A stretch of 64,000 bases of DNA from a virus (IMGVR_UViG_3300042465_007929:1-64000); one strand, 5' to 3'. Positions 5,005 through 22,082 are shown, counted from the stretch's first letter. The notes: a model not told the origin generated them from the sequence alone. A program made the numbers and translations.

Positions 5005-5721
5005 TTATTCTCTCTGTTTACAAAGATATTCAGCAAACTGAATCATACCATAAATCTGCTCATCGCCCCCGTCAATATAAAAACGAAGACCTCCAAACTT
5101 AGATTTAACTTGAGCAATTTTAACTTCGGCTATTTCTTTTTTAAGATACTTATTCTTAATTCTCAGTCTATTATAGTAGAGGTTCTGAAGCCATTGTTGT
5201 ATTTTATATTTACGAGTGAGTTTGACGATTTCTGAAATATCAGATGGAATTACCCACCATTCTCCTTTATCTACAGGTCGATAGTTTTTATAAGGGTCGA
5301 GAGAGTTATATAGAAAATAATAGATTCTACTCCAAATAGGTTTAAAGATTTTATTACTCAAAAAGATTCTAGTTTTCTTCTTTGGATTTAGAATGCTAAC
5401 ATATCGATACTTCTGGTAATTTACGATAGAACCACAAAGACCGTCCACAATATCTTGCCACGGGCGCGGACAACCAATTCCACACTCGGCGTAAGCTGTA
5501 GTGCCGTCTTCGTTTTTATTAAAAAGAGACGGATATTTCTCCATAAGAGATTTTTCAAAATCATCTTCTTGCTTAATGATATTTGCTGGAGTAGAGAGTT
5601 CTTTATTGATTTCTATAGCATCATCAACTCTCTGTTTAAGTTGAAGGATTTGTTTTTCAAGATCAGCGATATGATCGCTAAACTTAATTCTCTTTGCGTT
5701 TGGATTTCCTTTGGGTGGCAT
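5005..5721 (-). CDS. Hypothetical phage protein with a QVKSKFGGLRFY motif
   Basis: The QxKxKFGxLRFY motif recurs in phage hypothetical proteins. Confidence 0.6.
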   Translation of the reverse strand: MPPKGNPNAKRIKFSDHIADLEKQILQLKQRVDDAIEINKELSTPANIIKQEDDFEKSLMEKYPSLFNKNEDGTTAYAECGIGCPRPWQDIVDGLCGSIVNYQKYRYVSILNPKKKTRIFLSNKIFKPIWSRIYYFLYNSLDPYKNYRPVDKGEWWVIPSDISEIVKLTRKYKIQQWLQNLYYNRLRIKNKYLKKEIAEVKIAQVKSKFGGLRFYIDGGDEQIYGMIQFAEYLCKQRE

Positions 5722-7148
5722 ATTATTTTATAGTTTATTATCTCTTTGCTCTTCAAGCCATGATTTTGGCTTACCATCCCAACTAAAAGACCAAAGATTA
5801 AAGAATGGCAGATCGCGTTCTTCGTCGTATGGCTCCAATTCTTCTAACCAAATAAATGATGATGATGAATTAAGTTGCGTTTTGCGGACAGTGTATTCTT
5901 GACCAACACATAAATACCTTGATTGATCTTGTACTACATTTTGAAACCAATGAATTGTTATAGGTTCTTTAAAGATGACCTTCTGACCATCCTTTGGGAA
6001 ACCCATTTCTTCTTTACCTTTTTGTGTATTATGTATGCTCACTCCTTCTTTTCTTTCTTTACGAATTTTATTAAGATATCCAGCAAGTTCTATACTATCT
6101 TCTTCAGTCATATTTTAATCTATAATTTATTTATAAATTCAATGTCCCGCTGCCAATTTCTTTTTCAGATGGAGGCAGTGTGGATGGCAGTGTTTCTTTT
6201 CCTGTATATTCTTTCATAATGTATGTTACCAAAATTTTAAATTTCTTCCAGCATTAGCAATAATAAAAAAACAAGTAATAATATGTACTAACCACCAAAA
6301 TGTTCTGATTATTGCGGCAATATCTGATTCTTTATTTTCTTCAGATATTTTTTGCCCCATTGTTTTTGCCCAAATTCTCCAGATCTTATTCATGGATTTT
6401 TAGAAGCGAGATAACCATCTCTCCATTTTAGAAAATCCAATAAAGATTCATCATTTTCAATAACTCTTTGAAGCCAAAGTTCTTGGAGTTCTTCATATGG
6501 ATCTCGATCAGAACGTTCTGCATAATAAAACCCTTTGCACCATAGATAGATATTTTTAATCATTTGTTTCTAATATTTTCTAAAACTTGTTTTGCTTTTA
6601 TTTCTAGAGCTTCACGACAATTATTGTATGTTCCATCAGAACGTTTGGGGGCGGCAACTAATTCTGCGAACTGAAGAAGATCGATAAATGCTAGAATAAT
6701 TTCTTTTTCATTTTTTGATTCGCTCATTTTTTAATAGATTATATCAAATCATCGTCTAACCATTCCATCTCAACTTCATAACCAAGATGCTCTAAAACCA
6801 TTTTTAATAAATGGTCTGGTGTGTCAAAAGCATTGCCGCCAATTTCTTTATCATCAACATAAATGTCTGATCCTGTTTCATAACAACAGTGATCTCCGCA
6901 TTCATATTCATATGGTTTGAAACCTATTTTAATTTTCTTCATAAGCACTTAAAAATCCCGGAGTTCCTTCGCCTAACCAAGCTCCTGCTTGATTATATTC
7001 ATGAAATTCAATAGCTTCTTCCTCAGTCATGCCTTCATCCATTAATTTTTCGATGATAAGTTCTTTATCATAAACATAAAAAGGTTCTTGACTACATCTT
7101 TCCACAATTCCTAGTATGCAGTCATCATAACCATCCATTTTAAGTAGA

Positions 7149-15711: not shown

Positions 15712-15716
15712 AAAAT

Positions 15717-15785
15717 TGGTGGATGTTGGGGAATTGAACCCCGTCCGCAATAGTAAACTATTACGTCGAATCCCTATGGACACCC
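15717..15785 (-). ncRNA. Minimal tmRNA tRNA-like domain lacking the mRNA-like domain
   Basis: GGGUGUC-CAUAGGGAUUCGAC-[GUAAUAG UUUA CUAUUGC]-GGAC-GGGGUUCAAUUCCCC-AACAUCC-A-CCA; G3.U70 and A73. Confidence 0.8.
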
Positions 15786-17505: not shown

Positions 17506-17580
17506 TGGTAGTCCGTCTGGGTTTCGATCCCAGTCTCTCTCACTTATAAGGCAAGTGCATTCCCATCCTGCTCACGGACA
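17506..17580 (-). tRNA. tRNA-Ile(UAU), atypical
   Basis: CU-UAU-AA loop, T-loop AUCGAAA, U1.U72, A73-CCA. Confidence 0.8.
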
Positions 17581-19382: not shown

Positions 19383-19415
19383 AAAAAGCCTACCTTGAAA
19401 AAGGTAGGCTTTTTT
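19383..19415. terminator. Bidirectional intrinsic terminator
   Basis: aaaaagcctacctt-gaaa-aaggtaggcttttt between convergent units. Confidence 0.85.
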
Positions 19416-19422
19416 AATAAGA

Positions 19423-19497
19423 TGGAGCATCTTGTCCGATTCGAACGGACGACCTGCTCATTACAAATGAGCTGCACTACCACTGTGCTAAAGATGC
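19423..19497 (-). tRNA. tRNA-Thr(UGU)
   Basis: Canonical cloverleaf, UU-UGU-AA, CCA. Confidence 0.92.
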
Positions 19498-19505
19498 ATA
19501 AAAAT

Positions 19506-19580
19506 TGGCTCCAAAGGTAGGGATCGAACCTACGACCTAGAAATTAACAGTTTCTCGCACTTCCGCTGTGCTACTTTGGA
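19506..19580 (-). tRNA. tRNA-Asn(GUU)
   Basis: Canonical cloverleaf, CU-GUU-AA, G73-CCA. Confidence 0.92.
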
Positions 19581-19587
19581 TTTTTAT

Positions 19588-19821
19588 TTATAAAATTTCT
19601 GGATTATTGGAATTTCTTTTATTTCTTTGGATAGCTTTTCCAAGCTTTATAATCTCATTAATCACTTCTGGTGAAAAAGAATCTAAGCTGTTCTTTTGTC
19701 TTCTTTGAATGGCTTTTTCAGCTCTGCATTGCTTGCATCTATAATTTCCATTTCGTCCTAAAACAAAATCTTGCTCTCCGTGTTTTTCGCAAATCTGTTT
19801 AATAATTTTTGGTTGTTCCAT
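19588..19821 (-). pseudogene. Probable internally deleted HNH-type endonuclease remnant
   Basis: CEKHG...YRCKQCR Zn motif with no nuclease core; GTGTAT 8 nt upstream. Confidence 0.4.
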
Positions 19822-19880
19822 ACTATTATATACACACCAACTAAATTAATTAATTTTATTAAAAACAAAAAAAAAGCTAA

Positions 19881-20011
19881 TCTATCGCTGAAGAAGTCCT
19901 CCATATCCACAGAGGTTAATGATCCTTCTTCACTTTTCTACAAATACTAACTCGCTGGAAATTTCCTGTCTGTTTTTTCTGAATACTTCGGGCGATCAAA
20001 CGCACGATAGA
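19881..20011 (-). ncRNA. Stem-closed structured RNA module A
   Basis: Terminal UCUAUCG/CGAUAGA; internal UGAAGAAG/CUUCUUCA and CCUC/GAGG. Confidence 0.55.
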
Positions 20012-20014
20012 AAT

Positions 20015-20128
20015 TGGATTTGCGGCTCAGGTCGCTATCACTCACAATGATTGACATTAAAGTCAGCTATATAAGATTGCTCCTTGTGAAAACGTCTTGG
20101 TTCACGATGACCCCTCAATGACCGCAAA
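20015..20128 (-). ncRNA. Stem-closed RNA module B with an acceptor-like stem and CCA
   Basis: UUUGCGG/CCGCAAA-U-CCA; internal GGUC/GACC, UCACAA/UUGUGA, UGAC/GUCA. Confidence 0.6.
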
Positions 20129-20132
20129 AGTA

Positions 20133-20288
20133 TTTATCTGTCAGACCTTTTACTAAAATATGCCCCTCGCGCATATATGACATCTTCGCTGGTTCACGGA
20201 TGGGCCACTTTGTAGCGATTCACATCGCCTCAGACGGATTCCCAGCATAGGTCTTCATAGCCGTATGTAGATATTCTCGACAGATAAA
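20133..20288 (-). ncRNA. Stem-closed structured RNA module C
   Basis: 10-bp terminal stem UUUAUCUGUC/GACAGAUAAA; internal GCUGG/CCAGC, GCGAU/AUCGC, AUAUGC/GCAUAU. Confidence 0.6.
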
Positions 20289-20293
20289 AAATG

Positions 20294-20402
20294 TAGAAGA
20301 AACTGGATTCGAACCAATATTGTATCATATTGCCTAAGCAATCAAGGAATCAAACCTTGTCGAACAACTGCCGTTGTTGCATTTCCATTATGCTATTCTT
20401 CT
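20294..20402 (-). ncRNA. Anticodon-less tRNA mimic with two T-arm-like hairpins
   Basis: AGAAGAA/UUCUUCU acceptor, GCAU-AAUGGAA-AUGC D-arm, ACAAC-GGCA-GUUGU, extra CAAGG-UUUGAUU-CCUUG, T-arm AUUGG-UUCGAAU-CCAGU. Confidence 0.75.
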
Positions 20403-20406
20403 GAAA

Positions 20407-21098
20407 GTTGTGCAGTACTCTCCTGCTGTCACACCCATAATCCATAGTTGCGACCTATAAGATCTAGCTGATGTTTCTAAAATTTAGAATGACTGAGATG
20501 TCTAATCTAGGACTCTCAAATAGCGGTCTTCATTAAAGATATGCCCTCAGCCATTCAGTTGTCCATAGGGTGTGCATCCCATCGCCTCAAGCAGGACTGG
20601 CTCTACCTAGTACTATAACCATTACCATAGGTGGTTTCTTTACGGTATATTCCTATTCGCCAAGGAAGTAAAGAACGGTTAGACGAAAGTAGACCAATTG
20701 CCCGCCTAAGCAGGCAATTGGAATGTTGTCCATGGCATCATTCGATGCTTACGTTCACGCAGGACTGGCACTAGCTAATGGTTAGCCCACATTAGTCAGG
20801 GTCCATAGAGTATTCACTCTTCGATTCAAGCAGGACTGGCATTATCTATGGATATCCTCATAGCAGGAGAAGGAAGCCCATAACCTTCGTAAGGCTTTTT
20901 GGTATCTACAATGTATGGTTATTGACCCACACGGAATTTCAAGCCTGTAAGCATAACTTAATATGCTCCTAACTCACCGATTTCCATTGTAAAAATAATC
21001 TCTACCGTTAAACCGACTTTCACTGGTCACGAATTCTTCGCAAATTAAATTTGCTTCACTGGTAGAGTCGCCAACGCATCGTAATCGAATACATTAGC
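20407..21098 (-). ncRNA. Large (~690 nt) multi-domain structured RNA with a triplicated motif
   Basis: No ORF of 60 aa or more in any frame, raised GC, many independent stems, GCCAGUCCUGC...AUGGAC three times. Confidence 0.7.
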
Positions 21099-21103
21099 AA
21101 AAT

Positions 21104-21178
21104 TGGCGAGCAGGCGGGAATCTAACCCGCGATCTTTAGCCTATGGGTCTAACGCTTTATACACTAAGCTACTGCTCC
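21104..21178 (-). tRNA. Degenerate tRNA-like element (CAU), pseudo-tRNA or mimic
   Basis: 6-bp acceptor + G-CCA, D-loop without GG, loop CCCAUAG, T-loop UUAGAUU. Confidence 0.6.
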
Positions 21179-21188
21179 TAAAAATTGA

Positions 21189-21260
21189 TTGCGGGTAGTA
21201 GATTCGAACTACTGTGAAATGCTTATGAGACACCTATCTGAACCACTCGATTAACCCGCG
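21189..21260 (-). tRNA. tRNA-fMet-like (CAU)
   Basis: CGCGGGU/ACCCGCA with a C1.A72 mismatch and CU-CAU-AA; lacks the three G-C pairs in the anticodon stem. Confidence 0.8.
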
Positions 21261-21268
21261 ATTAAATA

Positions 21269-21375
21269 CTTTTTAATAGTAAGTCTTTGTCGTTTTCAAA
21301 TCCCTACCTGAATACACAGTTTAAGATTTTCCTACTTACAGAACGGAGCGTGAAGCTCCTTTTCCTATTAAAAAG
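21269..21375 (-). ncRNA. Stem-closed structured RNA module D
   Basis: 11-bp terminal stem CUUUUUAAUAG/CUAUUAAAAAG; GGAGC-UUCAC-GCUCC hairpin. Confidence 0.55.
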
Positions 21376-21406
21376 CAAAACTAATAATAAAAATAATAAT
21401 ATGAAA

Positions 21407-21468
21407 GAGCAAATTTTCCTCCAACCGATGATTTGAGGCAATCTTTTGAACCTGACTTAGCCCTGCTC
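21407..21468 (-). ncRNA. Stem-closed RNA module E at the operon 5' end
   Basis: GAGCAGG/UUUGCUC stem with CCUC/GAGG inside. Confidence 0.4.
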
Positions 21469-21482
21469 AATTGATATAATTA

Positions 21483-21511
21483 GTTATAGACGATTTTGGG
21501 GTTTTTGTCAA
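21483..21511 (-). promoter_or_regulatory. sigma70-like promoter of the tRNA/ncRNA operon
   Basis: TTGACA-N17-TATAAC. Confidence 0.75.
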
Positions 21512-21518
21512 CAGTTTT

Positions 21519-22082
21519 TTACAAAAACTTTTCCCACTCTTTTCTGATACTTGGAACATGAAGGAAAACGCTAGGAATACTAGGCGCTTTCACGATTTCA
21601 TTTTTTACATTATAGTAAGGAGTATGACTAGCCTTTTTTTGATTACATTGAAGACAGGCAAGAGTCCTATTATCATGTTCATCTGTGCCGCCTTTACTTT
21701 TTGGCTTGATATGATCAATAGTAAGATCTGCAACACTAAACTTCTCTAAGCAATATTGGCAAGTAGAATTATAAATTTTAGCTAATTCAACTAGAGAAAA
21801 CCTTTTCTTCTTTGGTCTTTTGAAAAATCTGCTAGTAACAACAATTACTGTTGGAATTGGCCATGATTTCTTTGCACTGCGAAGAACTGGTTGATCTCCA
21901 TAGAATTCAGCATTAGTATTCCACTTATCTACAGAATCAAATAAATTATAATTCTTATCTAGCGCCGAAATATTACCACTTAATAGATGCGCGAAAGCTG
22001 CTTTTGCTGTGATAGCAGTAACAGGTTGCCACGCATTATTAAGAAGAAGAGTTGTTTTAGTGTTGCAGTCTACGATATTCAT
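21519..22082 (-). CDS. HNH endonuclease (McrA-like)
   Basis: CQYC...TIDHIKPKSKGG...N...C..CN..K. Confidence 0.9.
   Translation of the reverse strand: MNIVDCNTKTTLLLNNAWQPVTAITAKAAFAHLLSGNISALDKNYNLFDSVDKWNTNAEFYGDQPVLRSAKKSWPIPTVIVVTSRFFKRPKKKRFSLVELAKIYNSTCQYCLEKFSVADLTIDHIKPKSKGGTDEHDNRTLACLQCNQKKASHTPYYNVKNEIVKAPSIPSVFLHVPSIRKEWEKFL

Follow-up and report, generated by a model that had tools for sequence, protein, structure and literature searches.

The first 64,000 nucleotides (nt) of the virus record IMGVR_UViG_3300042465_007929, which we refer to as the window, contain a transfer RNA (tRNA) operon on the minus strand in which tRNA genes are accompanied by a series of other structured RNAs. 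The record is complete, comprises 139,990 bases and has a terminal repeat. It encodes a DnaE-type (family C) polymerase, DnaB, RecA and ThyX, and ARAGORN detects nine tRNAs across the 140-kilobase (kb) genome. The largest interval of this genome free of open reading frames (ORFs) is located at 19822-21518 (1697 nt) and has a GC content of 40% as compared to 33% for the genome. A preliminary description of the region stated that no ORF of 60 amino acids (aa) or more is present in 19881-21511, and this is borne out by our ORF search. The region is a real, non-coding and unusually dense array of uncatalogued structured RNAs of a kind that is already known. With hardly any doubt, it consists of about 14 independent, structurally conserved non-tRNA modules and two tRNA(CAU) genes (Table 1), and among phage tRNA arrays the modules behave as cassettes that are acquired, lost, duplicated and rearranged. 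In the scan against Rfam 15 that had been recommended as a check, only tRNA reached the gathering score, with three tRNA-shaped units in the array. The non-tRNA units yielded nothing beyond one reverse-strand match (E 8.2) and one 22-nt match (E 2.1), and longer variants of the modules in locus L074 had no Rfam match. Five diagnostic module words occur in no paper we found, while an overlap with the 10,006 unvalidated viral candidates of PMC10690425 is possible.

Homologues were collected by pattern scans with a threefold repeat from the array and with modules C, A, D, G, B, I and M, which led to about 40 loci from viral and metagenome contigs (L numbers), several of them duplicates. The search for covariation and conservation in relatives suggested earlier could thereby be run, and compensated pairs in the homologues support the units. 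Pairing is kept through compensatory changes in modules C, D, I, H, L, B, A, G and E, and five modules feature pseudoknots; the compensated pairs of G, E and also M were seen in pairwise comparison. Module C has 45 pairs and is 98.8% paired, 12 pairs carrying double changes versus 4.6 +/- 1.3 in shuffles (0/500). Its three-pair pseudoknot changes on both sides and the second pseudoknot is invariant save for one position. For module D, 96.9% of the cells are paired in eight sequences and five pairs show double changes (0/500 shuffles), and for module I the values are 98.2% in 21 sequences with 15 double-change cells (0/500 shuffles). Slid structures score far below the true folds of C, I and D. 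Module I folds into a stem of four base pairs (bp) whose CAGYCCU loop pairs with the 3' terminal GGRC, and both helices covary. When the stem was omitted from the search pattern, 92 matches resulted and the stem was complete in all 14 new matches near a same-strand tRNA, many of which are close relatives, versus 2 of 78 elsewhere. Stem 2 of module H changes from GAAGG/CCUUC to GGAGG/CCUCC and GGAUG/CAUCC, and the loop pairing of module L from AUC/GAU to GCC/GGC. The conservation of module F is too high for a covariation test. Closing stems, as claimed in the preliminary description, are present in D, C, B, A and the tRNA mimic, and E folds and is conserved; modules H, I and K end in a pseudoknot and not in a closing stem. 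Modules A, B and J occur in the source genome as shortened versions of longer forms.

Table 1. Features of the array and its surroundings in the order of transcription. Positions refer to the window.
Feature	Position	Strand	Basis and remarks
HNH endonuclease gene, directly upstream of array	21519..22082	-	Pfam PF01844; context, membership in the system not claimed
Sigma-70-type promoter TTGACA-N17-TATAAC, head of array	21483..21511	-	Sequence; kept in L113, L049
Module E, first unit 3' of promoter, two hairpins	21407..21470	-	3 homologues, compensated stems; end-closing alternative pairs too
Module D, closed RNA of ~107 nt, two pseudoknots	21269..21375	-	8 sequences
tRNA(CAU), fMet-like	21187..21261	-	ARAGORN, Rfam; 83-99% identity in relatives
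Atypical tRNA(CAU)	21104..21178	-	Rfam 48.9 bits; 93-96% identical in L032, L066, L119
Module F, hairpin and closed domain with two CCAGUGAA loops	20999..21098	-	Alone between tRNAs in L079/L076, L146
Module G, three-way junction and variable hairpin	20907..20991	-	15 distinct sequences; compensated variant in L113
Module H, compact H-type pseudoknot, ~30 nt	20869..20898	-	Compensated stem 2; two copies in L059, L114
Module I copy 1, variable hairpin, then pseudoknotted stem	20801..20866	-	21 sequences
Module I copy 2	20728..20797	-	Internal repeat
Module J relic, outer stem only	20692..20721	-	Core conserved in relatives, replaced here by CUUAGG cap
Module K, long 5' hairpin domain ending in module I copy 3	20561..20686	-	Homologues L066, L077, L113
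Module L, 10-11-bp closing stem, two hairpins with loop-loop pairing	20486..20557	-	Covariation, 4 distinct sequences only
Module M, variable stem, then GUGACAGC-GAGA hairpin	20409..20478	-	L113 85% with compensated stem; distant copies L266, L267, L281
tRNA mimic without anticodon	20292..20402	-	Fold; 6 distinct sequences
Module C, ~154-nt multi-stem RNA, at least 2 pseudoknots, many invariant unpaired bases	20134..20287	-	15 sequences
Module B, variable insert flanked on either side by invariant core, total length 55-165 nt	20020..20127	-	23 distinct sequences, compensated stems; short variant here
Module A, closed RNA, long-range UGAUC/GRUCA pairing	19881..20011	-	7 distinct sequences, compensated pairs; internal hairpin deleted here
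Inserted 77-aa ORF (19588-19821) behind TATATAAT element	19588..19834	-	No Pfam match
tRNA-Asn(GUU)	19506..19580	-	ARAGORN, Rfam
tRNA-Thr(UGU)	19423..19497	-	ARAGORN, Rfam
Bidirectional terminator hairpin, perfect 14 bp	19383..19414	.	Kept in L113, L083

The stretch 20407-21098 had been considered a single large RNA. It lacks a closing stem and is in fact a succession of nine or ten modules (F, G, H, I1, I2, the J relic, K ending in I3, L and M), since these occur alone or reordered across relatives; the shuffled order likewise rules out one ornate RNA of 690 nt. The original division into effector RNA units thus holds as far as conserved, covarying and uncatalogued units within a tRNA operon are concerned, albeit with about 14 small units in place of six and a giant RNA. 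A threefold repeat inside this stretch (GCCAGTCCTGC..ATGGAC, three matches versus none in 100 shuffles) went unmentioned earlier; it is conserved and corresponds to module I, a triplicated pseudoknot. The independence of the modules is evident from their company elsewhere. In L079, module F precedes G by five tRNAs, and in L146 it stands by itself between tRNA-Tyr and tRNA-Glu. G stands alone between tRNA-Met and tRNA-Tyr in L122, L132, L134 and L142, and B alone between two tRNAs in L146 (tRNA-Ala/tRNA-Ile), L144, L157 and L158. Full-length J, of which we have eight sequences from relatives, mostly resides directly 3' of B and not of I2, and the unit that succeeds L differs between phages (M, C, B or the mimic). 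Minimal B cores are present in two further phage types (L148, L159) and M-like RNAs in three more phages. Two records with B, one of which also contains G and H, encode a family B polymerase, unlike the family C enzyme of the source phage, and in two complete phages of 106 and 113 kb that have no match to the source DnaE or DnaB, module I lies 4-5 nt upstream of a tRNA. As the modules sit in phages with different polymerases or replication genes, they are traded across phage lineages. A blastn search of cultured phages did not reveal any module homologue except for a 27-nt motif related to the M hairpin, which is unannotated in about 20 records. Bacterial genomes contained no match to C and a single one to B, which is the same phage contig within a metagenome-assembled genome. 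In L281 (960-1150, minus strand), two GUGACAGC-GAGA hairpin RNAs flank an abiF-like hairpin (E 0.15) just 3' of tRNA-fMet.

The preliminary description also pointed at motifs recurring between units. All of them are in place, and CGTGAACCA, ATGAAGACC and TGAGGCGATG are found nowhere else in the genome, but they are mostly unconserved: CGUGAACCA is not retained in homologues of B, UGAGGCGAUG forms a helix arm in C that covaries freely, and the CUUAG loops are caps that vary. Motif sharing across units is therefore mostly coincidence. The sole shared motif conserved in both families is UGAAGACC in C and L. In both, it is situated 3' of a three-pair hairpin whose loop engages in a covarying three-base pairing, and on the basis of these common elements C and L may share a sub-motif.

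The three tRNA-shaped units reported before are indeed present according to ARAGORN and Rfam, which place them at 21187-21261, 21106-21178 and 20294-20402. The fMet-like tRNA(CAU) has a C1:A72 mismatch, lacks the three G-C pairs of the anticodon stem and has no encoded CCA. Its neighbor deviates further by C33, an altered T-loop and an irregular first acceptor pair; its conservation in relatives argues against random decay. The mimic is composed of an acceptor stem, a D-arm, a tetraloop hairpin, two T-arms and a terminal ACA. RNA2 of phage T5 exhibits the same layout (acceptor stem, D-arm, two T-arms, no anticodon loop, final ACA), although the alignment is limited to bases of the D- and T-loops and the mimic profile scores RNA2 no better than ordinary tRNAs. 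Elsewhere in the window (15713-15785, minus strand) we noted a mini transfer-messenger RNA (tmRNA), a tRNA-like domain with one short hairpin in place of the message part. A homologue with a compensated hairpin lies inside the array of L066 (about 5535-5606, plus strand) between the atypical tRNA(CAU) and module F.

The locus had been put forward as a candidate new system. The type is not new because the tRNA clusters of phages T4 and T5 share the arrangement, with non-coding, non-tRNA units inside a phage tRNA operon that form self-contained folds, mostly with a closing stem and a short tail. The T5 record NC_005859 lists eight stable RNAs among its tRNA genes (RNAI, RNAIII, RNAIV, RNA1, RNA2, RNA2H, RNA3 and RNAX), and here as there several non-tRNA RNAs of 70-170 nt, most with a terminal stem and a short 3' tail, lie amid tRNA and HNH genes. 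The likeness does not extend to sequence homology, as 11 module-alignment profiles and a covariance model of module I match only generic tRNA likeness in the T5 region, and the array of the source phage differs in having about 14 modules back to back, several of them pseudoknotted. RNAC and RNAD (species 1 and 2) are small stable RNAs of unknown role in the T4 tRNA cluster (PMC3014915) that have been detected by Northern blotting (PMC9697503). T4 has only these two RNAs, and neither aligns significantly with any module, including RNAC with module C, which had been considered alike. The array therefore appears as a richer version of the stable RNAs of the T4 and T5 tRNA clusters, made of families that appear uncatalogued. 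Profile and covariance-model searches of the Felix O1 tRNA cluster did not find any module.

Further known RNAs were compared. The YrlA and Y RNAs that act with Ro60 are tRNA-like RNAs without an anticodon and also occur in phages. No module matches YrlA, and in the mimic the usual tRNA order is retained and a second T-arm is present in addition. A Ro60 partner was rejected: the complete genome has no TROVE gene, and the single one among 24 related records is some 30 kb away from the module. Type III antitoxin pseudoknots (ToxI) and the pseudo-ToxI decoys of phages resemble H and I, which are H-type pseudoknots of about 30-45 nt and occur more than once. H and I differ from them in having no Rfam match and no head-to-tail repeat array, and no cognate toxin gene was seen, the neighbors being HNH and ThyX. 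A reading of C as a permuted group I core (P4-like UGCUGG/CCAGC) was dismissed because the J4/5 adenosines are not conserved and Rfam gives no match. G as an L1-stalk mimic fails for want of a significant alignment to Escherichia coli 23S rRNA, the UUGA bases of G being paired, and F as a mimic of the T-loop of RNase P RNA for want of one to E. coli rnpB; in these alignments 2 of 64 tests reached p ~0.01, and they were scattered. The resemblance of B to a permuted glmS ribozyme and of I to twister or fluoride-type RNAs amounts to short words and finds no support from Rfam or core motifs, for which the unpermuted forms were scanned.

The array is preceded by the promoter and followed by the terminator that had been described. 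The promoter, one of eight strong TTGACA-N17-TATAAC matches in the genome, is conserved in two relatives, and the terminator is a perfect hairpin (Table 1). The transcription unit was thought to run through RNA genes only, but a 77-codon ORF with its own TATATAAT element intervenes between module A and tRNA-Asn. The closest relative, L113, lacks this ORF and retains the element, which is also located upstream of tRNA-Asn in many relatives. As the element is kept without the ORF, the last two tRNAs (Asn and Thr) probably have a second promoter. Early transcription, as proposed previously, would have the promoter shape as its only basis, and T4 RNAC and RNAD are classed as late. The HNH gene upstream has relatives beside these tRNA arrays in nine loci, with identities down to 26% in the unrelated phage L072. 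In L049 and L114, the HNH protein is 76% identical as compared to 88-89% for module C, i.e., the RNA is more conserved than the adjacent protein.

A run of U residues is present within 10 nt upstream of all copies of C (16/16), B (21/21), G (18/18), A (8/8), the mimics (7/7) and F (5/5), as compared to 18% of random 10-mers. Most units end in a tail of 3-5 nt followed by another U-run, as do the tRNAs of the same loci (U-run upstream in 218 and downstream in 253 of 306), and CCA is part of the 3' tail in 9 of 21 copies of B. RNase E cleaves at single-stranded sites with U at +2 and initiates the processing of tRNA operons just 3' of CCA (PMC5222698, PMC2190699). The units look built for one-by-one release, in agreement with the notion that the operon is cut by tRNA-processing nucleases; yet most of them lack a tRNA elbow, and cutting at U-runs by an RNase E-type enzyme therefore fits better than RNase P/Z alone. 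Contigs of relatives in a freshwater metatranscriptome (X4) match I, G, H, C and A; they show neither strand nor ends and are not proof of transcription. Among sequencing runs, four holders of a small share are available as contigs only, and in three of them the RNA island receives most of the coverage and the flanking genes receive little. Since the genes are less conserved than the modules, this bias is unreadable as expression.

Judging from this organization, one transcript starting from the promoter at 21511 is probably cut into stable RNAs of 30-160 nt. Host RNA polymerase would produce the single transcript, a single-strand, U-preferring endonuclease of the RNase E type would cut the U-runs between units, RNase P would trim the tRNA-shaped ones, and each closing stem or terminal pseudoknot would halt 3' exonucleases at a distance of a few bases, so that stable RNAs comparable to T4 RNAC/RNAD and the T5 stable RNAs would remain. 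The released RNAs might then act via their folded shape and not by base-pairing, and it is conceivable, if tentative, that they serve as decoys or ligands of host proteins dealing with tRNA, stalled ribosomes or the sensing of infection, with anticodon nucleases, RNA-gated toxins and quality-control factors as candidate targets. The two-T-arm mimic and the nearby mini-tmRNA could represent the tRNA-shaped members of this arsenal. The company kept by the modules consists of tRNAs, the two-T-arm mimic, the mini-tmRNA and, in relatives, full tmRNAs, and their patchy, multi-copy spread across lineages looks like that of an accessory locus in an arms race. An accessory RNA-gene operon that releases protein-binding RNAs may quite possibly be the overall explanation, and it is the one we prefer. 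A protein-binding role is favored because searches for antisense targets, ribozyme cores, a Ro60 partner and complementarity between modules gave nothing, while invariant unpaired bases in compact folds remain; we rank it ahead of catalytic or aptamer, spacer, RNA-assembly and antisense roles.

Several observations speak against the protein-binding operon. Pair counts are not independent events, since the homologues are akin to one another (66-90% identity) and the loci include duplicates, and F, L, M, K and E are represented by few sequences. G-H-I and I1-I2 are not separated by U-linkers and may remain joined. The antisense search, which gave nothing above chance for 16S, 23S, RNase P RNA and one phage tmRNA, used E. 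coli rRNAs as stand-ins, with host mRNA targets outside its reach. Finally, no partner protein was found, Ro60/TROVE included, and the sole recurrent neighbor is the HNH nuclease.

The pseudoknotted modules C, D, B (core) and I could instead be catalytic or bind small molecules, either as ribozymes cutting the operon or as aptamers sponging signaling nucleotides. C combines helices that cross with long unpaired tracts that are invariant, all within 154 nt, and thus bears the signature used to choose ribozyme candidates, but of ten such complex candidates tested none cleaved (PMC10085705). Small pseudoknotted theta ribozymes, a minimal type resembling that of hepatitis delta virus (HDV), lie beside phage tRNA genes, at tRNA 3' ends in gut phages (PMC10879173), and B and G often follow directly 3' of a tRNA CCA. 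The modules differ in that U-runs separate them from the tRNA end and terminal stems close them, which is not the case for cis-cleaving ribozymes. Our own HDV/theta descriptor, used without a positive control, gave zero matches, hammerhead, pistol, hairpin and glmS core motifs were not encountered, and no ribozyme or riboswitch matched in Rfam at E up to 10. We regard this possibility as unlikely, and slightly more so a wider version of it, in which module C (or D, or the core of B) would be a new class of trans-acting catalytic or ligand-binding RNA (e.g., a sponge for an immune or stress nucleotide signal) and tRNA operons a general expression chassis trading such RNAs between unrelated lineages. 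It is also improbable that the modules remain in one long transcript or re-associate into an RNA-only assembly like the GOLLD/ROOL nanocages, which are structured phage RNAs near tRNA islands, can contain tRNAs and, in the case of GOLLD, also stem from lake samples (PMC12286853). The 692-nt block folds better than shuffles (z -3.2), a 9-bp long-range pairing links the I1 flank and M, and L066/L106 retain most of the module order. On the other hand, GOLLD and ROOL each form one RNA several hundred nt long that has a conserved core, neither matches in the window or in 20 related loci, and the block here splits into modules without Rfam match. In most relatives neither the order nor the content is intact, tRNAs and ORFs being interspersed among the modules, L066 keeps I1 but has no M, and the longest inter-module complement is 9 nt.

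That the modules are housekeeping parts of the tRNA operon, i.e., stable spacers, obstacles to exonucleases or guides of processing by which tRNA yield is tuned, without a target of their own, is as unlikely as operon-cutting ribozymes or aptamers. H and I occur as compact 3' pseudoknots on several different 5' domains, and the position of I just before a tRNA in two unrelated phages would suit such a role, yet a spacer needs stability and not invariant loop bases or the multi-pseudoknot cores of C, D and B, and many tRNAs of the same arrays have no adjoining module. Antisense regulation of host or phage mRNAs by some modules, in the manner of the P1 C4 or P4 CI RNAs, has a similarly low probability as an RNA-only assembly. 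The M-related motif is widespread in phages and the 3' hairpin of M presumably resembles C4/CI-type RNAs, but RF01695 (C4) has no match at E up to 10 in the genome, module M included. The longest complement to the phage's own 140-kb genome is 15 nt, no long one exists to the host-type RNAs tested, and conserved loops are mostly tied up in pseudoknots. It is very improbable, finally, that the modules are passengers, either neutral or selfish, which owe their spread to recombination between tRNA genes and to neighboring HNH nucleases. HNH genes do recur beside arrays and A, B and J are shortened here; nevertheless, it is evident from the compensatory changes and the invariant loops that RNA structure is under purifying selection, and the RNAs surpass the protein next to them in conservation.

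The role of the non-tRNA stable RNAs in the T4 and T5 tRNA clusters has been open for decades. The array adds about a dozen families with alignment-supported folds and exact boundaries, several pseudoknotted, that move as cassettes between phages with different replication genes, and each module is short enough to be transcribed, probed, tested for self-cleavage and used as bait. Both the phage and its host are uncultured, which is a limitation. If the modules are decoys, tRNA operons would constitute an overlooked store of RNA anti-defense factors; if one of them is catalytic or binds a metabolite, it would represent a new RNA class.

Some additional features deserve mention. A second region of the genome (C1, 114239-125331) contains seven ORF-free gaps of 400-840 nt, mostly GC-rich, and a tRNA gene with the apparent anticodon UAU at 17509-17580 of the window (minus strand) is detected by Rfam and missed by ARAGORN. 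Relatives carry at least six further conserved non-tRNA modules that are absent here and have the same U-run punctuation (L074 575-960, 1150-1340, 1450-2090 and 2830-2930; L080 5340-5655; L113 2480-2680). Group I introns occur in related tRNA clusters (L080 ~6735-6940, L110 853-1046, L004 6637-6838), with Rfam matches in L110 and L004; the one in L080 appears, as read by eye, to interrupt the anticodon loop of tRNA-Asn. Full tmRNA genes are present in L080 (3515-3895), L097 (5891-6275), L099 (7315-7619), L145 (5175-5561) and L148 (7060-7493). Two of the predicted tmRNA tags end in ELALAA, which we take to resemble tags of Verrucomicrobia and which may provide a clue to the host.

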